From an uncultured Bacteroidales bacterium (GTDB lineage: Bacteria > Bacteroidota > Bacteroidia > Bacteroidales > B18-G4), in assembly GCA_963753055.1 (NCBI GenBank), contig CAVWAP010000002.1, forward strand, positions 257,411 through 321,410: 64,000 bases of DNA, given 5' to 3'. Under the pieces are notes generated by a model that worked only from the letters and a program-made list of their open reading frames with translations, had not been told where the DNA came from and did no database searches. This document shows positions 6,441 through 55,119 of this stretch, piece by piece. Positions within the stretch are counted from its first letter, which is position 1, and every line of letters starts with the position of its first letter. The position numbers were made by a program, and so were the translations under genes.

Positions 6441-6500
6441 GTTTTACTTATTCCATCTGGTATGTATTACTTCAGGATACAGGCTGGAGATTTGGTTTAA
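6441..6500 (+). pseudogene. orphan T9SS CTD tail relic
   Basis: Translates to ..LLIPSGMYYFRIQAGDLV*. Compare LPAGMYYFSIQAGEMV in the 13051 gene. Confidence 0.5.
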
Positions 6501-6610: not shown

Positions 6611-7114
6611 TTAATTGAATCTTTCTGGTTTTTTTAAATGGTAATCTGTAGCATCCTGAAATGCTTTTGCAACGGCCATTAGTTTTGCTTCCTGGTATGG
6701 TTTGCCCACAAAAGTCACGCTGGTTGGTTGTCCATTTTTTAGGAAACCACATGGGACAACAACAATTGGAAGGCCAGTAACATTTGTGCTCCAGTTAGTT
6801 GACCATGTCATTTCTATATATACATCAACATCTTTCATTATCTCATGCATTTCCTGAATCATAAGTGTCCGGTATCTAGCTGCCTGAAGGTATTCTACAG
6901 CAGGAACAAAGCGATGTGCACGGTGATAATTTGGCCATTTTTGATCTTCAACCTGATCATCCGCTGTACCTCGGGTAAATTCATCAAAGGCAGCTGATGC
7001 TTCAACTAACATCATAATTCCTTCCCCTTGATGAGGTTGTATATTCCGCTGCCATTGACCATCCCAAACCGGAAATATTTGACCACCCCTTTGTAAGTAT
7101 AAGAAATTATCCAA
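6611..7114 (-). pseudogene. amidase-family C-terminal fragment (5' truncated)
   Basis: The 167-aa ORF ends ...GLPIVVVPCGF...VTFVGKPYQEAKLMAVAKAFQ, resembling an amidase-signature enzyme C-terminus. Only 100 bp separate it from rsgA, so about 300 N-terminal codons are missing. Confidence 0.55.
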
Positions 7115-7214: not shown

Positions 7215-8282
7215 TTAGTACTTATTCCCTTTTTTGTCCTTTTTGTAATTCTTTATCATTTTACCAAAATCTTTATCCTTTTTTCGTTTTTCAGCAACAG
7301 TCGATTCAAAATGCTCTTTTTCCCGTTCCATTTTCAGGTAGTTTTCATAGGACAACTTATCTATTTCTCCACTTTCAACGGATGCTATAACTGCACAGTC
7401 AATTTCTGTTGTATGTGTGCAATTGTTGAATTTACAATCTGTAGATAGTTTGAGTATTGTTTCAAATGTAATTTCCAAACCTCCTGTTGAATCCGCAATC
7501 CCAACTTCTCTCATTCCAGGATTGTCAATTAGAATTCCGCCATTTTTAAGAACGATTAATTCGCGATGACTTGTAACGTGTCGTCCTTTGTTTGTACTTG
7601 TACTAATCGTATTAGTTTTCATCAATTGTTTACCTGAAAGATTGTTCAAAAGGCTTGATTTTCCTACTCCTGATGAACCTAATAAACAGTAAGTTTTTCC
7701 TTTTTCTATATTCTGTTTAAGTCTTTCTATTCCTTTTTGGGACTCATTGCTTATAGGAATTACTGGTACTTGATTTATTCTTTCTTGAACTGTGGTAATC
7801 AACTTTGCTAAGTCGGTATCACTTATCAAGTCAATTTTATTAAGAACGATAATCGGTACTACATCTGATGTATAGCAAATCGTCAAATACCTTTCTATTC
7901 GGTTGATGTTAAAATCCCTTTCAACTGCCTGTACAATTAAAGCATAGTCGATATTTGTTGCTATGATTTGTTTCTCGCCTTGTTTGCCAACTGCTTGTCT
8001 TTCAATGATGGTTTTTCTTGGAAAGACCGAGTGGATAAGCACATTATTTTCATCATATTCTGAAAATGCAACCCAATCACCGACAGCAGGGAAATCTGAC
8101 CTTTTAGTAGCTGAAAATCTTAAATTTCCGATAATCTCCGCATCATATTCTTTTTTAGTAGTTTTTACGACGTATCTTTCCTTGTGTTCGGAAATAACTC
8201 GTCCCACTTCAAATGAATCAAGATTTTGGTCTTTTCGGTAATTTTCCAATTCTATATTATATCCTAAATCTTCAAGTGTCAT
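7215..8282 (-). CDS. rsgA: ribosome small-subunit-dependent GTPase A
   Basis: Circularly permuted GTPase motifs VLNKIDL then GSSGVGKSSLLN. Zinc knuckle CKFNNCTHTTEIDCAV. Lys-rich C-terminal tail. Confidence 0.9.
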   Translation of the reverse strand: MTLEDLGYNIELENYRKDQNLDSFEVGRVISEHKERYVVKTTKKEYDAEIIGNLRFSATKRSDFPAVGDWVAFSEYDENNVLIHSVFPRKTIIERQAVGKQGEKQIIATNIDYALIVQAVERDFNINRIERYLTICYTSDVVPIIVLNKIDLISDTDLAKLITTVQERINQVPVIPISNESQKGIERLKQNIEKGKTYCLLGSSGVGKSSLLNNLSGKQLMKTNTISTSTNKGRHVTSHRELIVLKNGGILIDNPGMREVGIADSTGGLEITFETILKLSTDCKFNNCTHTTEIDCAVIASVESGEIDKLSYENYLKMEREKEHFESTVAEKRKKDKDFGKMIKNYKKDKKGNKY

Positions 8283-8427
8283 TTCTTCTTTCTTGTATTA
8301 AGCACAACGTTCCCGGCGCATGGCCCGGGGCGGTGTTTTATGTTCCGCCGCAGCTGGATTCTTTGTTATTACACTAAAGATACAAAAAGCTCTGTTTCCA
8401 ATACAGAATCTGATAATTACATGCAAC

Positions 8428-8476
8428 GGTCATCCTGAAGGAGTCTCGCCTTGGGCGAGGCGACTGAAGGACCTCC
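8428..8476. repeat. REP-like GTCATCCTGA...GAAGGACCTC backbone with inserted hairpin
   Basis: ggtcatcctga [aggagtCTCGCCttgGGCGAGgcgact] gaaggacctcc. The same backbone with a different insert occurs at 21343, 25718 and 44163. An insert-free relative gtcaccccgagcgaagtcgaggggtctc lies at 8760. Confidence 0.65.
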
Positions 8477-8520
8477 TTCACTTTTGCTCCTAGTCAGCAG
8501 AAACAGTCAGCTTGCTTGAT

Positions 8521-8900
8521 CACAGAATTTGACTTTCTTCATTCTTACTTTTTCCATGATGAAAAAGTAACAAAAAATCTAGTCGGAACGAAGCTTCCGC
8601 GCGCCCTGTCCGTATCCTGGCGGATACGGACATTCCCACACACGCCGGCCCGCCGTTCCGACCGGCCCCCCCGCCCGGATAACAATCATTCTTCCTTCTA
8701 AAATAAATTCTGTGACAGTGCCGGGTAGATATCTTACAAGGTTTATAGATACAAGATGTCACCCCGAGCGAAGTCGAGGGGTCTCCATCACGTAGGCACC
8801 GGACTGGCAGAATCTACCTGCCAGCTATATGCCGTAAGCTATTTAATAGTGTTGTTACAAAAAACGAAAAGAATGAAAGGGTAAGGCTATTGGATACAAC
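8521..8900 (+). repeat. divergent member of the approx 370-nt GC-rich structured element family
   Basis: Shares its ends (cacagaatttgactttc ... aagggtaaggctattggatacaac) with the copies at 21099, 25476 and 43925. The internal hairpins sit at the same relative positions but have a different sequence. Confidence 0.6.
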
Positions 8901-9019
8901 GTTGTCGGTATGCGCAGTGCGGGTTTCAGGGCGAATACCTATCGAGCCGTTGCTATGTTTATTTACATGTACTCACGTTAAATTTCCACATTGTCCCGCA
9001 TTGCGTATGACCGCGTGTT
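8898..9019. mobile_element. 122-bp MITE-like element
   Basis: Imperfect approx 25-bp terminal inverted repeats: AACGTTGTCGGTATGCGCAGTGCGGG at the left, and the reverse complement of the right end reads AACACGCGGTCATACGCAATGCGGG. No ORF. Confidence 0.55.
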
Positions 9020-9080
9020 AGCAACAGTATTTTATTATCAATATTAAAAGGTCAACTTTTTGTAATTTTTTCAATATTTG

Positions 9081-10061
9081 TTAACTTCTCATTGCTGCGA
9101 TATATTCTTCAATTGCAGTCTTGATGGGAGTATAGGTAATACCCAGTTCTTTTTCAGCTTTACTACCATCAGCTTGAAAACCTACTTTCATTGTTTTCAT
9201 CTGGTTATCAGACATACCCCAGATAGGTGGTTTTTTGATCAAGTTGGAAATCCGGGTGAGCACGTAGGCACTCGACAATGCCATGAAATCAGGCATGCTT
9301 ATAAAAGGCAATGAAACTCCAGAGACTTCACTTATCATTTTATTGAAATCTTTTAAACTAATCTGATGTTTCGCAATAATGTACCTTTCACCTATGTTGT
9401 TAGGTTTTTCTGCCGCTTTAATTATCCCTTCAGCAACATCTTTGATATGAACCCATGTAAGAATACTATTTTTAAAAATAGTTGCCGGTAAAGTCTTTTT
9501 GACAAGCCCTGATACATATGCACCAGATGATTTTGGATCTCCTGCACCTAAAACTGCACCGGGGTAGATAACTACTAGTGGCAAACCATTGTTTTGATAA
9601 AGATCCCAGGCTATCTGATCACCTTCAAATTTAGTCTGAGCATATAAACTGTACTTCTCAGGGCCTGGTGTACTATCTTCCTTAAATGGGATTTCATTAG
9701 GTTTTCCATAAGTCACTACTGAACTGATATGCACTACTTTTGATACCTTGGTTTCCAATGCACATTCCATTATGTTACGAGTGCCATCAACATTCGTTTT
9801 CTTGTAGACTGACTTATCAGGTTCCCAAAATGTATATATGTTGGCCAAATTAATGACCCAATCACAACCCTTCATTCCTTGAAGGATGGATGACTTGTCT
9901 CTGACGTCTCCTTCTATTACTTTAACTCCAGATGACCGGAGTCTTTCAATAGATGGACTAGTTTTCCTAACCAAACATAACAATTCATGATTGGTATATT
10001 TTAACTGTTCAAGTACCTGTTTTCCTATAAAACCGGTAGCTCCTGTAATAAATATTTTCAT
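9081..10061 (-). CDS. NAD(P)-dependent epimerase/dehydratase family (extended SDR) oxidoreductase
   Basis: N-terminal MKIFITGATGFIGKQV Rossmann motif and YAQTK catalytic motif. 326 aa. Confidence 0.85.
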   Translation of the reverse strand: MKIFITGATGFIGKQVLEQLKYTNHELLCLVRKTSPSIERLRSSGVKVIEGDVRDKSSILQGMKGCDWVINLANIYTFWEPDKSVYKKTNVDGTRNIMECALETKVSKVVHISSVVTYGKPNEIPFKEDSTPGPEKYSLYAQTKFEGDQIAWDLYQNNGLPLVVIYPGAVLGAGDPKSSGAYVSGLVKKTLPATIFKNSILTWVHIKDVAEGIIKAAEKPNNIGERYIIAKHQISLKDFNKMISEVSGVSLPFISMPDFMALSSAYVLTRISNLIKKPPIWGMSDNQMKTMKVGFQADGSKAEKELGITYTPIKTAIEEYIAAMRS

Positions 10062-10231: not shown

Positions 10232-10353
10232 AACGGTTTGGCTATGTGTAGTGTGGGATTTTATTGTACCTCACTTTCAAATCACTACAAAACTTATTGC
10301 TTGTGTATACTTTCAAATTATCACTGAAACCCGCATTGGATATAGCCTTGGTT
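10232..10353. mobile_element. 122-bp MITE-like element, inverted relative to 8898-9019
   Basis: Left end AACGGTTTGGCTATGTGTAGTGTGGG. The reverse complement of the right end reads AACCAAGGCTATATCCAATGCGGG. Same length as the copy on the other side of the SDR gene. Confidence 0.55.
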
Positions 10354-11171: not shown

Positions 11172-11404
11172 CCCAAGAAGGATATGTCCATAAAAAGATC
11201 CTTGAAATTAATTATTTAATTAGTATTGCTTGTAACTTGTTTATATATTATCATTTTGTTGTCTTTAACACCCATATAGGGTGGATAAAAACACGTTTAT
11301 GTAATTTGTATATATGATTTATTCAAATATACAAAAGTTTATTTGGTCATTTCTGCTGCAACTTCCACCCCATCTTCGCCAAAGGCTCCGGAGGGTAAAA
11401 AAGG

Positions 11405-11464: not shown

Positions 11465-11721
11465 TTCGTGATCCACCTTCGCTGCGCTTCGGTGGACAAC
11501 GTATCTGATATCTGATATTTGATTATTCTGTTCAGTGTTCAGTGATCAGTGTTCACTGTGTTGGCTTGTGCGTGTAGTTCTAGTCAGGAAAAGGGGGGGT
11601 AGATGTTTGTCGTCAGCAACATTTGGTCACAATTAAACCATCTTCTTGGGTTATAGCTTTATGATGTCCAAATTCTTTTGAAGACTTACAAGAAACGAGG
11701 CGTATAATGTTACTGTATTCC

Positions 11722-13050: not shown

Positions 13051-14856
13051 ATGAAAAAGTTTATACTATTAATCATTATGATGATTCCAATTATCATGAT
13101 GTCACAGACACCGGTTCCTGCGGGACCGGTATCCGGCACCTGGAACCTTGCCGGCTCACCCTATATGGTGAACGGGGAAATCTATATTGAGGAAGCGGCC
13201 ACACTGGTAATTGAACCGGGAGTGGAAGTACGTTTTACAGGCTGGTATAAGTTTATCATAAACGGATCCTTAATGGCTGAAGGCACCGAAGCAGCCAATA
13301 TTCTTTTTACTGCTGATGATAACAATGAGCATTGGTACGGGCTCAGGTTTATAGAAAGTAATAAAACTTCAGTCCTGGATTATTGTATTGTCGAATATGG
13401 AGAAACAATACTTGATTGGGGTATTGGCTTGTTTCCTGAAAATGCCGGTGGTGGGATTCTTGTAAGCATGTGCCCAGATGCTTCCATATCAATTAAAAAT
13501 TCTATCATACGTAACAACGAGGCTTATGATGGCGGTGGAATATTATGCGATGAAAGTATTATCACAGTGGAAAATTGTGAAATCACCTCAAACAGTGCTT
13601 TCAATGGTGGTGGCATAGTTATTATTAACAATTCTTCTCTTACTATGACCAACTCAACCATTGCAAATAATTCCTCTGGAAACGAAGGGGGAGGGATTCT
13701 ACTTCTTGTAGGAGGTTTACTGGAATTAATCAATAATACATTTATCCATAATACCTGTCAAAATGGTGGTGGTGGACTTTGTATTTATGATCCTTTGAGT
13801 TTTATTATTAAGCAAAATATTATAGCTTTTAATTCCGCTGAGGAAGGAGGGGGTATCTATCTCGATGACGCATATAATTTAGGATCATTATCAGACAATA
13901 CCATTGCCTATAATGAGGCAACTATTAACGGAGGAGGGGTATGCTGTGTTGGAAATACAACACACTCCTTTGAAAGTAATATCATTTATTTCAATCAAGT
14001 AAACGAAATAAATAATCAGATTTTTCTTTCCGGCAACTCAATTCCCATAATTTCATATTGTAATATTCAGGACAGCACAGCTGGATTTAGCGGTTATGGT
14101 GCTGCCTCGGTATCACTTACTGATTGTGTTTATGGTGACCCATTATTTTCAGATCCCATGAACGATGATTTCTCTTTAACATGGGATAATTATCCTTATC
14201 CGGACGGAACCAGATCACCATGTATTGATGCCGGTTGTGTGGGATTACCTGAACCCGACGGCACTTGCAATGATATCGGGGCATATTCCTTCTTCCAGCA
14301 ACTGGATGTACCTGTGATGCTAACAAATACCTATGTAAATGAAAATAGTTTCCTGGCAGAATGGACGGAATGCTATGGGGCTCTCGGATATTATCTCGAT
14401 GTTGCACTGGATGATGGATTTACAAATATGGTATATCAAGGAATTGAAGTGTTTGATAGCACCCGCTATATGGTTGAAGAACTTGATCAGGGAACAACAT
14501 ACTATTACAGAGTGAATGCATATAACAGCGCCCTAACCAGTATCTATTCTAATACTGAATCGGTTTCAACTCTTCCGACTTCAATTGATGAACAAGTTTT
14601 AATAGTTAAAATAGCCATTTATCCAAACCCCTGCACCACCACCACAACCCTCTCCTACATCCTTGACAAACCTGAGAATGTACAGTTTACAGTTTACAAT
14701 GTACAATCTCAGATCGTTTTTATGATGAAGGAAAAGCAGGAAAAAGGAGAGCATAAGGTGCAATGGAATGCTGAAGGATTGCCTGCCGGGATGTATTATT
14801 TCAGTATCCAGGCTGGTGAGATGGTTGGTGGGGGGAAATTGGTGAAAATGGAATAG
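13051..14856 (+). CDS. secreted beta-helix repeat protein with FN3-like domain and T9SS CTD
   Basis: Signal peptide, GGGI(L) beta-helix turns, an FN3-like segment (WTECYGALGYYLDVA...YYYRVNAY), and the CTD YPNPC...FTVYNVQSQIV...LPAGMYYF..KLVKME. Confidence 0.85.
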   Translation: MKKFILLIIMMIPIIMMSQTPVPAGPVSGTWNLAGSPYMVNGEIYIEEAATLVIEPGVEVRFTGWYKFIINGSLMAEGTEAANILFTADDNNEHWYGLRFIESNKTSVLDYCIVEYGETILDWGIGLFPENAGGGILVSMCPDASISIKNSIIRNNEAYDGGGILCDESIITVENCEITSNSAFNGGGIVIINNSSLTMTNSTIANNSSGNEGGGILLLVGGLLELINNTFIHNTCQNGGGGLCIYDPLSFIIKQNIIAFNSAEEGGGIYLDDAYNLGSLSDNTIAYNEATINGGGVCCVGNTTHSFESNIIYFNQVNEINNQIFLSGNSIPIISYCNIQDSTAGFSGYGAASVSLTDCVYGDPLFSDPMNDDFSLTWDNYPYPDGTRSPCIDAGCVGLPEPDGTCNDIGAYSFFQQLDVPVMLTNTYVNENSFLAEWTECYGALGYYLDVALDDGFTNMVYQGIEVFDSTRYMVEELDQGTTYYYRVNAYNSALTSIYSNTESVSTLPTSIDEQVLIVKIAIYPNPCTTTTTLSYILDKPENVQFTVYNVQSQIVFMMKEKQEKGEHKVQWNAEGLPAGMYYFSIQAGEMVGGGKLVKME

Positions 14857-15048
14857 TGAAATGATGTTCCATGGACGCATGGACACATGTACGAAGGAAT
14901 CTCTACTGTACCTCTGTTTGCAAACCACATATTGAAGTTATAAATTTACTGGTAAACATTTTACTGACGATCTACAGTGTGTACGCTTTAAATCTTTGCC
15001 CAATGTGCATGGCTCTAAACTTCGGACAAGTCAAATATTAAAACTTGT

Positions 15049-19529: not shown

Positions 19530-19667
19530 AGTTAAATAGTTATTTGATATTATATTTCTAAGACGAGGTTAAATATTGCGTAGTTACACTAATTTTATTA
19601 TCATTCGTATTTATTCCGAGCGTTTGGAAAAAAACCAGTATATGGCAAACCTCTTGACAAGCCCCGT

Positions 19668-19847
19668 AATCTACAATTTACATTTTACAATTTACATGGT
19701 CAGATTGTTGATAAAATACAAGAGAGTCAGGCAAAAGGGACGCAAAAAGTGGAATGGAATGCTGAAGGACTCCCTTCTGGAATGTATTATTACAGGATAC
19801 AGGCTGGGGAAAAGGTTGGAGGGGGGGAATTGGTGAAAATGGGATGA
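19668..19847 (+). pseudogene. orphan T9SS CTD relic
   Basis: Translates to NLQFTFYNLHGQIVDKIQESQAKGTQKVEWNAEGLPSGMYYYRIQAGEKVGGGELVKMG*. There is no N-terminal body. The track ORF 19576..19836 reads it out of frame. Confidence 0.65.
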
Positions 19848-21098: not shown

Positions 21099-21465
21099 CT
21101 GGCACAGAATTTGACTTTCATATTTCTTCATTTCTTTTGCTTGTCCAAAAGAAATGAAGCAAAGAAAAGGACAGCACGAATGCAGCCCTTTCTCCCCACG
21201 GTCAGACTTCCCACCGCACAGTCCCCGAAAGGGCCACACCATTCGTGCACTCCCCGCACCGGCTAGCACTGATTGATCTATGCTTCTCAGTTGGCAAAAT
21301 GTAGAGCCGGCTATAAATAGAAAAGCTAGTTACTTGTAACGGTCATCCTGATCCCGCGGAGCAAAGCGAGGCGGGAGAAGGACCTCAATCATTTTAGCAG
21401 TCAGCTAGCAGAAACAGACTGTCAGCTTTCCGAAAAGGGAGAGGGTAAGGCTATTAGCTATAACG
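21099..21465 (+). repeat. approx 370-nt GC-rich structured element, copy A
   Basis: About 98 percent identical to 43925-44291 and about 96 percent to 25476-25842. Contains a 13-bp hairpin (21127-21158) and the long-range stem GCACGAATG (21174-21182) / CATTCGTGC (21240-21248). Confidence 0.8.
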
Positions 21466-22462: not shown

Positions 22463-22737
22463 ATGTAATTTATAAAATTCTTCATTAATGTTGATAAAAT
22501 TAAACTATTTCTCCTCTAATATCGTGAATACGAATAAGATTCTTTTGCATTTGCAAATGGCTGGTAACTTGTTTATATGTTAACCTTTTGTTACTTTACA
22601 CACCCATTAAGTGTGGATAAAAACACGTTTTCAGTAAATATACAAAGATTCTGTGCTGCAACTTCCACCAAGAAGAGGCTCCACAAACAAAGGAACAGAG
22701 AAATAGAGGAGTTTTGAAATGATATCTGATTCATGAT

Positions 22738-25202: not shown

Positions 25203-25239
25203 AATTAATAGATAAATGAGTCATTTTTTATTGCAGCAT

Positions 25240-25362
25240 AAAGTTCCCGGCGCATGGGCCGGGGCGTGTTTTTGTTCCGGCTCAGCGGGATGATTTGTTA
25301 ATACATTAAAGTTAGTCAATTCTGTTATAAGATGTCCCGCTGAGGCGGGACAATTTTTGTTA
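25240..25362. mobile_element. approx 120-bp MITE-like unit (GC-rich-end variant)
   Basis: Starts AAAGTTCCCGGCGCATGGGCCGGGG and ends GTCCCGCTGAGGCGGGACAATTTTTGTTAT. The internal pairing ctcagcggga / tcccgctgag is present. A homologous unit lies at 43690-43808, and a related start at 8306. Confidence 0.45.
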
Positions 25363-25475
25363 TAAAGAAATGCTTTCATTCAAGCTCAACGGCGTTCTCG
25401 ACCTAAAACACCGCCCTGGCCTATAGCGCCGTGTTATATTACTGTAGCCTTAACCGATCCAATTCTGACCAGGTA

Positions 25476-25842
25476 CTGGCACAGAATTTGACATTCATAT
25501 TTCTTCATTTCTTTTGCGTGTCCAAAAGAAACAGAAGCAAAGAAAAGGACAGCACGAATGCAGCCCTTTCTTCCCACGGTCAGACTTTCCGCCACACGAG
25601 CCCCGAAAGGGCCACACCATTCGTGCACTCCCCGCACCGGCTAGCACTGATTGATCTATGCTTCTCAGTTGGCAAAATGTAGAGCCGGCTATAAATAGAA
25701 AAGCTAGTTACTTGTAACGGTCATCCTGATCCCGCGGAGCAAAGCGAGGCGGGAGAAGGACCTCAATCATTTTAGCAGTCAGCTAGCAGAAACAGACTGT
25801 CAGCTTTCCGAAAAGGGAGAGGGTAAGGCTATTGGATATAAC
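25476..25842 (+). repeat. approx 370-nt GC-rich structured element, copy B
   Basis: Collinear with copies A and C. Substitutions cluster in 25578-25600, inside the long-range stem. Confidence 0.8.
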
Positions 25843-26047
25843 TCGTTTATATGTGCTCCTTTGTTCTTGAGTTCCTCTGTTCAACATGTTGTCCCTTTTT
25901 TGATATCTGATTCATGATATCTGATATCTGATTTTCTGTTCAGTGATCAGTGTTCAGTGTTCACTGATTTGGCTTATGTGTGTAGTTCGAGTCCGGGAAG
26001 GGGGTGGTTTATAGATACTTTATTAATATTCGTCATCTGGATAGTCG

Positions 26048-43658: not shown

Positions 43659-43689
43659 AGGCTATTTTGGCGTATTGTTCATTACCTCC

Positions 43690-43808
43690 AACGTTCCCGG
43701 CGCATGGGCCGGGGCGTGTGTTTTTGTGTCGTGGCAGCGGGGCGCTATTTTCTGGATTAAATATACAAAAACGCCTTCTATATGTCCCGCTGTTTCGGGA
43801 CAAAGTTT
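43690..43808. mobile_element. approx 120-bp MITE-like unit (GC-rich-end variant)
   Basis: AACGTTCCCGGCGCATGGGCCGGGGCG ... GTCCCGCTGTTTCGGGACAAAGTTTT. Homologous to 25240-25362. Confidence 0.45.
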
Positions 43809-43924
43809 TAAAGGGAGAACCCTTGCCAGTTTTCTGAAAGGTATGCTTACCCTAAAACACTGCCCTGGCCTATTGCGCCGTGTTATGATCCTGTAGCCTT
43901 AACCGGTGCAATTCTGACCAGGGG

Positions 43925-44291
43925 ACTGGCACAGAATTTGACTTTCATATTTCTTCATTTCTTTTGCTTGTCCAAAAGAAACGAAGCAAAGAAAAGGACA
44001 GCACGAATGCAGCCCTTTCTCCCCACGGTCAGACTTCCCACCGCACAGTCCCCGAAAGGGGCACACCATTCGTGCACTCCCCGCACCGGCTAGCACTGAT
44101 TGATCTATGCTTCTCAGTTGGCAAAATGTAGAGCCGGCTATAAATAGAAAAGCTAGTTACTTGTAACGGTCATCCTGATCCCGCGGAGCAAAGCGAGGCG
44201 GGAGAAGGACCTCAATCATTTTAGCAGTCAGCTAGCAGAAACAGACTGTCAGCTTTCCGAAAAGGGAGAGGGTAAGGCTATTGGATATAAC
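43925..44291 (+). repeat. approx 370-nt GC-rich structured element, copy C
   Basis: Near-identical to copies A and B. Contains the CCCC-GAAA-GGGG hairpin inside the GCACGAATG/CATTCGTGC stem. Confidence 0.8.
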
Positions 44292-44558
44292 TAGTTTATA
44301 TGTGCACCTTTGTTCCTGAGTTCCTCTGTTCAACATGTTGTCCCTTTTTTGATATCTGATTCGTGATCCACCTTCGCTGCGCTTCGGTGGACAACGTATC
44401 TGATATCTGATTTATGATTTTTCTGGTCACTGGCCCGCCCATGCGAAGGCAGGTGTCACTCGTCACGACTGATCACTGTTCAGTGATCAGTGTTCACCGA
44501 TTTTGATCCTGCGCACTTTTTTCGTATATTGTTTGTCTCTATATTAACACCAATAGAG

Positions 44559-45473
44559 ATGAAACAAACAAAAATCTATTCAATAGTACTATTCTCTTTT
44601 TTATTAAATGTTTGCCCGCTATGTGGACAGAATAACATAGATGATGAAGGGTATATTAAAGAAGACTCTATGAATCTTGCTGTTCTTGTTGTAGACTTCC
44701 TTACATACGAATTCGAAGAAGCAAATATCTCTTATTACTTACTTTGCGATAGCTGTGACCTGGATAGCCTTCCATTCAATATAATCTTTGAATATCCTAT
44801 GGATTTTGGAGAAATTCTGTATAAATATTCATGGGATGATGACACCTTGTTTCATGGATCAATTATATGGTTAGGAACAGGAGAAATTCATTATCCAGAT
44901 CAGTTTTTTCCTGCAGACTCTTTTGGAATAAGCAATAATCAAGTGTCAATTCCTTCAAATGCACAATACTATGATTATTGGCTGATCGGCCACTCATATT
45001 GTTCTGAAGAAAGGTATAAGGAAAGAGCAGATTCAGCATGGTTTTCAATCGACTCCTTACTATTGGTAAATGAATTTGCAAATCATTCATTTCGTGTAGG
45101 ATTCTATGCATATACTCCAAGTGTTGGCATGTTTAATCCTTATGTTGCAAAATGGATCATCTTTCTTTACTATGGCAATGACTTTGGAGTAAGTGTCCCT
45201 GAATGCGATAAGGATAACTATTTCACACATCCTTACCCTAACCCCTGCGCAAGCGTTGCACGCTTGAGATTAACGATTACCGACCAACGATTAGCGATAT
45301 GTGATTTATATTCGATTTCGGGAAGTAAGATTTTGAGATTGATGGAAGAAGAGAAACTGCCAGGGGAATATGAAATTGAGATAAATGTGAGTGATTTGCC
45401 AGCAGGTATTTACTACATAAGGATGCAGGTTGGTGAGAATGTTGGTGTTAGAAAATTGGTGAAGATGGAATAA
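44559..45473 (+). CDS. T9SS C-terminal sorting domain protein (hypothetical cargo)
   Basis: The ATG at 44559 gives MKQTKIYSIVLFSFLLNVCPLCGQ. The C-terminus is YPNPCASVARL...LPAGIYYIRMQVGENVGVRKLVKME. Confidence 0.8.
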   Translation: MKQTKIYSIVLFSFLLNVCPLCGQNNIDDEGYIKEDSMNLAVLVVDFLTYEFEEANISYYLLCDSCDLDSLPFNIIFEYPMDFGEILYKYSWDDDTLFHGSIIWLGTGEIHYPDQFFPADSFGISNNQVSIPSNAQYYDYWLIGHSYCSEERYKERADSAWFSIDSLLLVNEFANHSFRVGFYAYTPSVGMFNPYVAKWIIFLYYGNDFGVSVPECDKDNYFTHPYPNPCASVARLRLTITDQRLAICDLYSISGSKILRLMEEEKLPGEYEIEINVSDLPAGIYYIRMQVGENVGVRKLVKME

Positions 45474-45712
45474 TGAAATGATGTTCCATGGCCGCATGGA
45501 CACATGTACGAAGTAATACCTTGTTAAATGAGAACATGCGTACATGTGAGCATGGTAAATGAATAATGATTTCCTGGTCACTGGCCTGCCCCTGCGAAGG
45601 CAGGTGGCACAGGTCACTGAATATAGGATAATGCGTATGTGGGTTTTATGAGGGGACTAAAGAACAACAATAAATATTGCATTCTCAATTACGAAAAAAC
45701 AATTTTTGAAAA

Positions 45713-48707: not shown

Positions 48708-48811
48708 ATAAACTTCTCATTTATCCCCCCTAGATATCAGAATACCGAATTACAATTAACGATATCTGAATTTCTGCTCAGTGTTCACGGGTCAGTGTTC
48801 ACTGGCATTGC

Positions 48812-53730: not shown

Positions 53731-53758
53731 TTGACAGTTGACAGTTGACAATTGACAA
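53731..53758. repeat. tandem heptamer array (ttgacag x2, ttgacaa x2)
   Basis: Four period-7 units lying 34-61 nt upstream of the cyclase start codon (minus strand). Confidence 0.8.
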
Positions 53759-53831
53759 TAATATGGCGCTATGTGTTATCTATGGGTATTCTATGTGTAT
53801 TCTAAGTTAAAGTCAAGTATTTTTTAGTTTT

Positions 53832-54824
53832 TCAAGCTGCATATTGTGCAATGGAAACATATGGAGTTCCTCTGGTTATTGTTGCAAAAACTCTTCCAAT
53901 TAATTTATTTCTCACGTTATTGATAACAATTTTCTTATGCTTTCCTTCATCTATCTTCTTTTTGAAGTATTGCCGTATTTCCGGGTCATGGTTGATTGCA
54001 GCCAATGCTGCGTTTGTAAGCAGTGCTTTAATCGTTTTATTAGCGTAATGACTGATCCTGGTTTGACCATGTATGCTTGTCCCTGAACTATGCTCAAAAG
54101 GAGCTGAACCCACATAGCAAGCAAACTTTCTTGCATTATCAAAATCTTCAAAGCAATTTGTATAAACAATCATATATGCCGCCGTAATCATCCCAATACC
54201 TTTCACCGAAGTTGCTAATTGATACTGATGTTTGATTTTATGATGTTGATCTATTTGCTGGATGATTTCATTTTCTATTTCTTGTATTTGTTTGGTATAA
54301 ACCCGGATCATTTTTTGTTGGTTTTTGATCAACACATCACTATTGCATAGCCCTAAATACTCTTTGGATTGCTCCATCGATGTTTTAAAGCTGGCTCGAT
54401 TCCTGGCTAACCTGGATCTATAAGAGAGCAAATACTTTAGCCTGACCAATTGTTTTGATCCCAAGGTGGTCATTCTTAACTTATCCTTGTGCAAAAAGGC
54501 ATATTCAGCAAGTCGGAAAGCATCAATCTGATCGTTCTTTCCCCTTTGTATGCCCAGAGATCTTTTTACCTGCAACCCACTAACCTTGGTATAATGTAAT
54601 CCTTTATCCTCACAAAACAATTGCAGCGGGAGATCATACATGCCAGTATGTTCAAAGCAAATGACTAAATCTTGTAAATCTTCCAGGTTTCTTTCCAACC
54701 AGATGATCATTTTCTTTAAACCTTTACTGTTGTTATCAAAAACTTCCTTGGTTCCCTTCCCATAAATACAAGCATCCAGTTTAGCTTTTGAAACATCAAT
54801 TCCTAAAAAAGTTCTTTTTTTCAT
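53832..54824 (-). CDS. IS110 family transposase (DEDD recombinase)
   Basis: GIDVSKAKLD and EHTGMYD N-terminal motifs. C-terminal SVKGIGMITAAYMIVYT....FACYVGSAPFEHSSG domain. Confidence 0.9.
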   Translation of the reverse strand: MKKRTFLGIDVSKAKLDACIYGKGTKEVFDNNSKGLKKMIIWLERNLEDLQDLVICFEHTGMYDLPLQLFCEDKGLHYTKVSGLQVKRSLGIQRGKNDQIDAFRLAEYAFLHKDKLRMTTLGSKQLVRLKYLLSYRSRLARNRASFKTSMEQSKEYLGLCNSDVLIKNQQKMIRVYTKQIQEIENEIIQQIDQHHKIKHQYQLATSVKGIGMITAAYMIVYTNCFEDFDNARKFACYVGSAPFEHSSGTSIHGQTRISHYANKTIKALLTNAALAAINHDPEIRQYFKKKIDEGKHKKIVINNVRNKLIGRVFATITRGTPYVSIAQYAA

Positions 54825-54990: not shown

Positions 54991-55070
54991 TTTTTTCAAC
55001 AAAGCCAAAGATAACTTCAAATGAAAAAGGCTAAACTAAAGGTTTTCTATGCGTCTCTATGATGCTGGAT

Positions 55071-55119
55071 GGAACATGGAACATGGAACATGGTACATTG
55101 AACATTGAACATGGTACAT
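55071..55119. repeat. tandem heptamer array (ggaacat x3, ggtacat, tgaacat x2, ggtacat)
   Basis: Seven period-7 units. Confidence 0.85.

Follow-up and report, generated by a model that had tools for sequence, protein, structure and literature searches.

A dispersed, structured repeat of a Bacteroidales genome with two stems kept by matched base changes: a candidate strand-specific, non-autonomous mobile element

Introduction

Non-coding repeats that lack terminal inverted repeats and target-site duplications are known as palindrome-associated transposable elements (PATEs) of the IS200/IS605 insertion sequences and as repetitive extragenic palindromic (REP) sequences, including REPINs, with their RAYT transposases; both are HUH systems of the Y1 type. 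Their two ends are distinct and conserved, DNA hairpins matter, orientation is strongly biased towards a single strand, and insertion occurs beside a short motif resembling the element's own 3' end. Apart from insertion beside such a motif, which may hold too, these features recur in the element described here, of which copy D occupies positions 8521-8900 (+ strand, 380 nt) of a 64,000-nt stretch of DNA (the window) from an uncultured Bacteroidales bacterium (contig CAVWAP010000002.1, positions 257,411 to 321,410). Copies A, B and C lie elsewhere in the window, and two helices of D, called hairpin 1 and P2, differ from theirs by matched changes on both sides. We put it at about an even chance that the family is a dispersed repeat, non-coding and non-autonomous, which is mobile in a strand-specific manner and whose hairpins are kept at the DNA level, with D as a member of a diverged subfamily.

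The likeness to PATEs and REP sequences has its limits. The element has no similar subterminal hairpin pair and no conserved hairpin near its 3' end: in A-D the distance from the 5' end to hairpin 1 is 24-28 nt, there is no conserved hairpin within ~40 nt of the 3' end, and the end hairpins are dissimilar. The element shows the strand bias of PATEs, with all copies on the + strand, and not their end hairpins. It is also much larger than REPs (235-380 nt, with a multi-helix interior), has no GTAG-type REP head, and no Y1 transposase is found among the larger open reading frames (ORFs) of the window. Comparison with E. coli REP/REPIN sequences, imperfect palindromes of 20-40 nt that mostly come as inverted pairs, failed as well, as the REP-type box of the element (GGTCATCCTGA, a variable hairpin and GAAGGAYC) occurs singly and in one orientation, with an inner hairpin that is variable or missing. 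Neither does the element agree with classical miniature inverted-repeat transposable elements: there is no complementarity between its 5' end CACAGAATTTGAC and its 3' end GGCTATTGGATAYAAC, and no direct repeat across the element was found in the flanks of A, B, C, D, F or G.

Bacterial interspersed mosaic elements (BIMEs) of E. coli and the pneumococcal BOX elements resemble the element in being strictly intergenic mosaics of short modules that vary between strains, with conserved end modules, a variable middle and a stable predicted structure. Unlike the present family, BIME and BOX copies are found in either orientation and are not known to have a strand-specific junction motif, and there is no sequence similarity to the element; here, moreover, one module takes the place of another at a given ...YAAC| site. 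Integron attC sites likewise have conserved ends and a middle that differs in sequence yet folds; they are recognised as single-stranded hairpins, and their cassettes form head-to-tail arrays of one orientation with strain-variable content and a junction motif with AAC and GTT. An attC assignment was tried and rejected: the element ends in ATATAAC or ATACAAC followed by GTTTAGT, GTTGTCG or GTTCCCG, which misfits RYYYAAC / GTTRRRY in the RRRY part, and the 5' and 3' ends are not complementary to each other. There is also no IntI or attI, the arrays are found at many loci and not on one platform, and most modules carry no gene.

Non-autonomous IS91 and Helitron-like elements share with the present family common termini around differing interiors, the lack of inverted repeats and duplications, and a tetranucleotide target resembling GAAC; in a relative, copy F stands beside an IS91-family Y2 transposase. 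The element is unlike the sequenced end of that IS91-like element, however, has no hairpin 10-20 nt from its 3' end, and the adjacency may be coincidence. Heptamer tandem repeats of the TAACTGA type (MacGregor 2015, PMC4679880; cyanobacterial STRR) have been reported in a few Bacteroidetes, intergenic and often near start codons, and also in Beggiatoaceae and cyanobacteria. Heptamer arrays are neighbours of the element in the same genome regions, whereas the element itself contains none.

Copy D and its family

Copies A (21100-21464), B (25477-25842) and C (43927-44291) are located on the + strand at unrelated loci and are mutually 96-98% identical. A is solitary, starting with TGGCACAG after native CCAAC and ending in GCTATAAC; B is part of a repeated chain of ~680 nt (25240-25918), and C of a B-type chain (43690-44367). 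D was matched to these copies both by nhmmer and by a covariance model. As sole nhmmer query it aligns over positions 1-379 to each of A, B and C (E 3e-9 to 6e-8), and a MAFFT alignment displays islands of identity along the whole element (TTCCCAC, CCCCGCnCCGGnTAnCA, CTCnATCA..GCA and CTnGCAGAAnC..CTGnCAGCT). On these alignments D is a true full-length and strongly diverged homologue of A-C. A preliminary description of the locus had D sharing only its ends with A-C, which the full-length alignment and the internal islands contradict. Outside the conserved 5' end, D is ~53% identical to A-C in the part that is confidently alignable, and the termini are much better conserved than the interior (86-100% vs ~50%).

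The 5' terminus of D (CACAGAATTTGACTTTC, 8521-8537, +) includes an exact 13-mer confined to the four copies; in A-C and G it is preceded by TGGC, a start that D lacks. The 3' terminus (AAGGGTAAGGCTATTGGATACAAC, 8877-8900, +), ending ...YAAC, is the same in A, B, C and F and diverged in G, and this boundary is set by five different right-hand neighbours. The ends of the family may be written as 5' CACAGAATTTGAC and 3' GGCTATTGGATATAAC, and its layout as a start (TGGC)RCAGAATTTGAC and an end GGGTrrGGCTAT-N4-5-TAYAAC enclosing ~235-380 nt, with P2 as conserved core and hairpin 1 (A-D) and a helix P1 (D, G) as optional helices. Element-like termini are also seen on other modules, namely AACGGTTTGGCTATGTGTAG (10232-10258 in the window) and AACGGTTCGGCTATGTTTATAAC (L015:6552-6580, -, in a relative); GGCTAT-N-TAxAAC may be a terminal signal common to several module families. 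No common ORF runs through the copies, and a protein-coding assignment was dropped since a 1-nt indel in B versus A and C interrupts the only long frame.

Directly upstream of D lies a partial copy, E (8411-8513, +), which the preliminary description overlooked. It corresponds to the 3' third of an A-C-type element without the last ~37 nt (blastn 69% over 107 nt; nhmmer E 8e-10, profile positions 230-334), and E and D could stand in tandem or have come together by nested insertion or recombination. Copies F and G were reached via relatives' contigs that carry the neighbouring proteins. F (L043:1-120) is again a 3' third, 77% identical to A-C and ending in GGGTAAGGCTATTGGATATAAC, from a strain in which the nearby region of a gene for a 151-amino-acid protein is 99.5% identical to the window. 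Its contig begins within the repeat, and a second contig (L045) begins at the last three bases of the element, breaks that are expected of a multi-copy repeat in a short-read assembly. G (L017, ~4391-4157, - strand, ~235 nt; start TGGCGCAGAATTTGAC, end AGGGTGGGGCTATGTTCTATAAC) belongs to a genome whose rsgA is 88% identical. Both element ends gave chance matches only against viral contigs, a plasmid scan with the termini gave no match, and the relatives' loci L018 (sigma gene), L019 and L021 contain no repeats or only coding sequence.

Base pairing in hairpin 1 and P2

In D, hairpin 1 is TTACTTTTTC-catgat-GAAAAAGTAA (8545-8554 with 8561-8570, +), and its inner 8 pairs have a probability of 0.96 or more. 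Its counterpart in A-C, TTTCTTTTG/CAAAAGAAA, is in register, with 4 pairs changed on both sides. The P2 stem, GTCGGAACG/CGTTCCGAC, consists of 9 bp (8582-8590 with 8654-8662, +; pair probability at least 0.96) and closes a domain (8582-8662, +) with GC-rich inner stems and a conserved C-rich segment, TTCCCACACAC (8633-8643). In A-C it reads GCACGAATG/CATTCGTGC, of which 5 pairs are identical to D and 4 are changed on both sides; in G a third perfect variant is found, GGGCGAAATG/CATTTCGCCC. The three versions share a GAA/TTC core. A-C and G are separated by two further double changes and a compensated one-pair insertion.

The conservation of these helices was evaluated with a covariance model (R1) made from A-C only, covering 150 nt with hairpin 1 (9 bp) and P2 (9 bp) as structure, and with a sequence-only model (R2) from the same alignment. 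A search of the whole window with R1, filters off, recovered D at 8521-8666 with 38.4 bits (E 1.3e-7) and both helices in register, while R2 gave 16.1 bits for a local match ending before the 3' arm of P2; structure contributes ~22 bits to the score. RNAalifold on the plain MAFFT alignment misplaced the helices of D and was uninformative, and the covariance-model alignment was used instead. In this alignment all 72 of 72 pair positions (18 pairs in each of 4 copies) are Watson-Crick and none is a G-T pair. Between D and A-C each helix has 4 double-sided changes, 8 among 18 pairs, and no single-sided change. The observed pairing and double-change values were matched in 0 of 500 column shuffles, and sliding the partner columns by 1-3 positions left 0 double changes and 40-54% pairing. 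When independent substitutions were simulated at the observed divergence (44-47%; 44% in the paired columns), all 18 pairs were kept in a fraction below 1e-5 of 200,000 trials. Hairpin 1 and P2 are kept by matched changes, and base pairing matters in them. A mutational process that corrects palindromes could maintain pairing instead of selection. The strictly Watson-Crick stems, without G-T, fit DNA better than RNA; because the core stems are wholly of this type, assignment of a + or - strand fold from G-U/A-C asymmetry is uninformative.

Variable parts of the element

Outside these two helices the architecture is less constant. Helix P1 of D (10 bp, 8521-8530 with 8705-8714, +) can be formed by the 5' end and an internal 10-nt reverse complement of it, and the fold containing P1 is less stable than the minimum by no more than 1.3 kcal/mol. 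In G, the 5' end with five upstream bases pairs over 18-19 bp with an internal AAATTCTGTGCCAATACC; P1 is missing in A-C. The 3' arm of P1, AAATTCTGTG (8705-8714), is located between two CCGG-TA boxes, CCCGGATA (8674-8681, +) and GCCGGGTAGAT (8720-8730, +). CCGGCTA occurs twice in A-C, and G carries AAATTCTGTG-N6-CCGGGTAGGAT like D. Within the P2 loop D has a specific, perfect 10-bp hairpin, GTCCGTATCC-tggc-GGATACGGAC (8608-8631, +; pair probability 1.0), of which only the 3' arm is homologous in A-C (ACGGTCAGAC), at a different place in that loop. The CCCC-gaaa-GGGG hairpin of A-C (CCCCgaaaGGGG) competes in A and B with a longer stem, GCCCTTTC/GAAAGGGC.

The REP-type box keeps its letters (GGTCATCCTGA ... 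GCGARGCG ... GAAGGAYC) around an inner hairpin that varies or is missing. The 5' arm of A-C is TCCCGC, paired with GCGGGA; that of E is CTCGCC and is paired instead with GGCGAG, the other half of the same conserved 3' core. In F both the 5' arm and the inner hairpin are missing. The degenerate box of D, GTCACCCCGAGCGAAGTCGAGGGGTCTC (8758-8785, +), is followed by CATCA...GCA to position 8798 and aligns with GGTCATCCTGA, hairpin, GAAGGACC-tcaATCA..GCA of A-C, E and F; it retains a short CCCCGA/TCGAGGGG version and the flanking letters, and has lost the outer GGTC/GACC helix. The last hairpin, CTGGCAG-aatctac-CTGCCAG (8804-8824, +, predicted), has an imperfect form CTAGCAG/CTGTCAG in the same columns of A-C and is degraded in F and E. 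The 3' domain as a whole displays little covariation. To judge from sequence, D's 10-bp hairpin and likewise the inner hairpins of the REP-type box seem to be recent inverted duplications, specific to a lineage and built on a conserved 3' arm. Compared with dinucleotide shuffles, D folds better than expected on both strands (z -3.9 for + and -5.2 for -), and the effect is weak for copy B (z -2.1 and -1.7).

The motif GGTCATCCTGA, with a variable GC hairpin or none, then GAAGGAYC-..ATCA..GCA is also present in a second, commoner module family which begins ...GCCAGTTAAGTACTACC; in the motif common to both families the letters of the internal loop are constant and the enclosed hairpin changes. 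Sites of GGTCATCCTGA...GAAGGAYC are located at 2927-2990, 27496-27530, 8428-8473 and 21341-21386 in the window and, in relatives, at L015:6886(-), L016:3460(-) and 7152(-), and L017:10798(-) and 12648(-). By eye, GGTCATCCTGA...GAAGGACC was compared with hammerhead and kink-turn motifs, and core letters or topology misfit across the variants; Rfam agrees.

The preliminary description had proposed that whole helices were exchanged at preserved positions and that the fold was under selection as RNA or single-stranded DNA. All hairpins it listed are present, at or within a base or two of where it placed them, apart from the length of the long-range stem, given there as the 7-bp CGGAACG/CGTTCCG and really 9 bp. 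Its positional equivalences are sound for hairpin 1, for the long stem (found by a model of A-C only), for the two CCGG-TA boxes and, by shared columns, for the last hairpin. They break down for the 8608-8631 hairpin, taken for the counterpart of CCCC-gaaa-GGGG, where only one arm is homologous, and for the REP-type box, where D keeps letters and not the A-C fold. A constraint on pairing is borne out for hairpin 1 and P2 (8 double changes, drift below 1e-5) and not for the whole architecture, given G, F and the D-specific hairpin. Members lacking some of the helices do exist in G and F, and the claim stands for P2 and, among A-D, for hairpin 1. Independent drift is rejected for these two stems, while the family behaves as mobile DNA and not as an RNA gene.

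Junctions, strand bias and turnover

The + strand of the window carries every copy and, with few exceptions, the other repeat modules too (24 direct vs 3 inverted repeat pairs). The orientation bias is tied to one DNA strand, and GC skew is weak. The copies are always intergenic and occur in head-to-tail chains with other modules. A lies downstream of a sigma gene, B and C between divergent genes and D between two genes of the - strand, and orientation tracks the chromosome strand, not the neighbouring genes. The chains around B, C and D each open 26-34 nt ahead of a start codon.

The chains have a common starting point. They begin directly 3' of a native ...YAAC on one strand, and the 3' end of the element reproduces the same motif: A-D, F and G all end in TAYAAC, with five different neighbours following. 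Such starts were located at 8306-8316, 25240-25250, 43690-43700, 11234-11245, 22566-22577 and 15042, and in relatives at L015:7087-7151, L017:9282-9346, L020:9934-9999 and L043:3385-3450. The module that opens the chain with E and D, M_left (GTTCCCGGCGCATGG..., 8309-8382, +), follows native GCACAAC 26 nt upstream of the start of rsgA. It belongs to repeat family D11, has blastn matches at 25235-25314 and 43689-43771, and its junction was compared with L015 and L017. The junction "AAC nn GTTTAT" was found 6 times between genes on the + strand and 0 times on the - strand, and 3 of 3 M_left junctions are on +.

Comparison with relatives showed that different modules occupy the same YAAC site in different strains, either M_left or (T)TGTTTATAT..., between flanking genes that are 97-99.5% identical. 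L015 and L016, with rsgA 97.7% identical, have no M_left, E or D upstream of this gene and carry a different module from the same base onwards. L020 has no repeats at the araC site and reveals that the araC-side chain starts after native CTCCAAC. Downstream of the gene for the 151-amino-acid protein, the window has a TTGTTTATAT module where L043 and L045 (99.5% identical) have M_left, both after TTGTAAC. At the three sites compared with relatives, neighbouring modules start exactly after native CAAC or TAAC. The left flanks of the elements themselves are more varied, A following CAAC (CCAAC), B TAC, C GAC, G TAT and D GAT. The family spreads or is exchanged in this Bacteroidota lineage, and module content differs between strains.

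Genomic setting

The window is chromosomal DNA of Bacteroidota type with a G+C content of 38%; its genes include those for RsgA, the primary sigma factor, an epimerase, KatG and several proteins with a type IX secretion sorting domain. Its intergenic regions are dense with short repeated modules, and the repeat survey of the window indicated many further GC-rich perfect hairpins across the genome. The site of D is a 798-nt gap between rsgA (7215-8282, - strand) and the epimerase gene (9081-10061, - strand). Between D and the epimerase stop (8901-9080) there is a long imperfect inverted repeat (TCGGTATGCGCAGTGCGGG ... CCCGCATTGCGTATGACCG) that occurs once in the window; hairpins of the type GCAGYGTGCGG...CCGCATTGC upstream of copy G in L017 are like it. 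On the other side of rsgA, an ORF of 167 amino acids (6611-7114, -) matches only the last ~40 positions of the Amidase profile and may be a gene remnant.

Heptamer tandem arrays (GTTCAGT/GATCAGT, TTTACAG/TTTACAA, GATATCT, GTTCCAT, TGTCAAC) are present in many intergenic regions, often beside GC-rich hairpins; arrays were recorded at 25923-25966, 11515-11558, 44456-44499, 48761-48804, 2607-2656, 14677-14726, 19668-19717, 31390-31468, 55060-55115 and 53735-53765. Repeats within genes (2533-2733, 14603-14900, 19594-19817, 45396-45517 and 6453-6497) represent C-terminal type IX secretion sorting domains of paralogous secreted proteins and have no relation to the intergenic modules.

Two unrelated IS110-family transposase genes (34934-36139 and 53832-54824, both -) and an IS3-type integrase-core gene (36809-37648, +) are encoded in the window. 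The first IS110 copy seems to adjoin or lie within the IS3-like element, and the second is flanked by heptamer arrays. In L043 (1-2411) and L045 (1-2300), copy F is followed after 326 nt by a gene for an IS91-family Y2 (HUH) transposase, frameshifted in L043, and then by a tyrosine recombinase gene; the insertion, whose end has a hairpin and GTTC (CCGCCTCCGAAAGGGGGCGGTTTCGTTC|AACGG), is missing from the window. The position of F beside this transposase may be meaningful or may be coincidence.

Discussion

A mobile, non-autonomous repeat would account for the properties of the family as follows. The copies would be moved in trans by a recombinase or transposase encoded elsewhere, acting on one DNA strand and reading folded hairpin DNA together with the conserved termini, as in transposition by IS200/IS605-type or other HUH single-strand enzymes. 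If the fold is what is read, P2 and hairpin 1 would stay Watson-Crick while their letters change, and some of the other hairpins would be recent inverted duplications with no conserved role. Several observations weigh against this account. The 64-kb window has 45 larger ORFs and no HUH transposase (Y1 or Y2) among them, the transposases that are present are of the IS110 family and IS3, with flanks unrelated to the element, and paired similar subterminal hairpins as in IS200/IS605 are lacking, with none consistently near the 3' end. Copy G has no hairpin 1; its membership is based on collinear motifs only (nhmmer E 0.4-2.8, R1 covariance model E 3.8). No empty site was recovered for A, B, C or D, the AAC| rule being derived from the neighbouring modules (M_left, TTGTTTATAT), and D, which does not start with TGGC, has the left junction TTGAT|CACAG and not AAC. 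The 3'-end 19-mer yielded only chance matches in coding regions among 185,579 genomes and JGI metagenomes. As to the covariation, the alignment was fitted to the structure, and A-C form one lineage, which means that two lineages were compared, two to three independent ones in all.

A variant of the mobile repeat, which we regard as unlikely though worth keeping in view, is that the modules are cassette-like, are inserted strand-specifically after YAAC and are read as folded single-stranded DNA (P2, P1, hairpin 1), the recombinase being of a type that has so far not been connected with such elements. In such a non-coding system of head-to-tail chains, with the motif recreated at each insertion, A-D and G would be the largest module. 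The stems could also have been perfected without selection, by template switching in quasi-palindromes or by inverted duplication in functionless, decaying repeats. The 10-bp hairpin of D, homologous to A-C in one arm only, is of the type expected from such events; so is the REP-type box, where different 5' arms pair with different halves of the conserved 3' core GCGAGGCG(G/A) in A-C and E, and F has none. That all strong stems are perfect, without G-T, in a genome full of other GC-rich perfect hairpins points the same way. P2, on the other hand, has the same position, a length of 9-10 bp and the GAA/TTC core in three lineages, despite at least 4 double changes and the compensated 1-bp insertion, and the far higher conservation of the termini suggests a function for at least part of the element. 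Mere decay is in our estimate a minority possibility. The compensatory changes would suit paralogous genes of a structured non-coding RNA of ~370 nt, with stems kept by selection on the RNA fold. Conserved unpaired islands (the C-rich TTCCCAC and the loop letters CCTGA/GAAGG beside variable hairpins) and a few one-sided + strand G-U pairs in the 3' domain (GGAC to GGAT in F and L015, three G-T in the last hairpin of F) may be added. An RNA gene nevertheless seems rather improbable. Rfam gave no match at gathering score over the window, chance-level matches only when the regions of D and B were searched up to E 10, and nothing but a tRNA in the related loci; the Bacteroidota promoter motif TAnnTTTG is absent from the four intergenic regions, and no terminator is present at the ends. 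The element has no counterpart at these sites in relatives whose flanking genes are 97.7% identical, while copies differ by 25-50%, its size ranges over 235-380 nt with whole helices present or missing, its core pairs include no G-U, and its orientation does not follow transcription units.

Two further explanations are very improbable. IS110 elements lack terminal inverted repeats and are inserted in a sequence-specific manner, and the family might be a derivative of such an element that has lost its recombinase and retains a bridge or seek RNA, with variable loops reprogramming target choice. Two IS110-family transposase genes are indeed present in the window, and within D there are a 10-nt segment complementary to its 5' end and a 7-nt segment repeating its 3' end. 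However, the element has no ends in common with, and no similarity to the flanks of, either IS110 copy, the internal 5'-end complement is missing in A-C despite the same 5' end, and where internal segments match the flanks they are short and differ from copy to copy. A cis-regulatory or mRNA-stabilising structure (terminator, attenuator or untranslated region) for adjacent genes, to which we give hardly any weight, would agree with A lying 135 nt downstream of, and co-oriented with, the sigma-70 gene, and with the short distance from the chains of B, C and D to start codons. It is at odds with the placement, which is not constant (one copy downstream of a + gene, two between divergent genes, one antisense between two - genes), and with the same genes in relatives, which are expressed without the element. 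Each of these rivals fits fewer facts than the mobile repeat.

Implications

The family is best filed as a variant of the bacterial non-autonomous structured repeats and not as an RNA class. More unusual is the way in which modules around the element are chained and swapped, strand-specifically and anchored at AAC. Should the family be subject to ordinary repeat decay, its use would be practical only, as a marker of assembly breakpoints and strain differences. If instead the mobile-repeat account is correct, the family would exemplify, for the Bacteroidota, structured non-autonomous repeats whose spread is confined to one strand and which are chained with other modules at a fixed short motif. 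Between near-identical strains it would rewrite the sequence immediately ahead of housekeeping genes (rsgA, araC-type and others), which would bear on the turnover of promoters and 5' regions, and it would account for broken short-read assemblies of these organisms. It would also show how hairpin-reading recombination systems shape genomes beyond the well-studied Proteobacteria.

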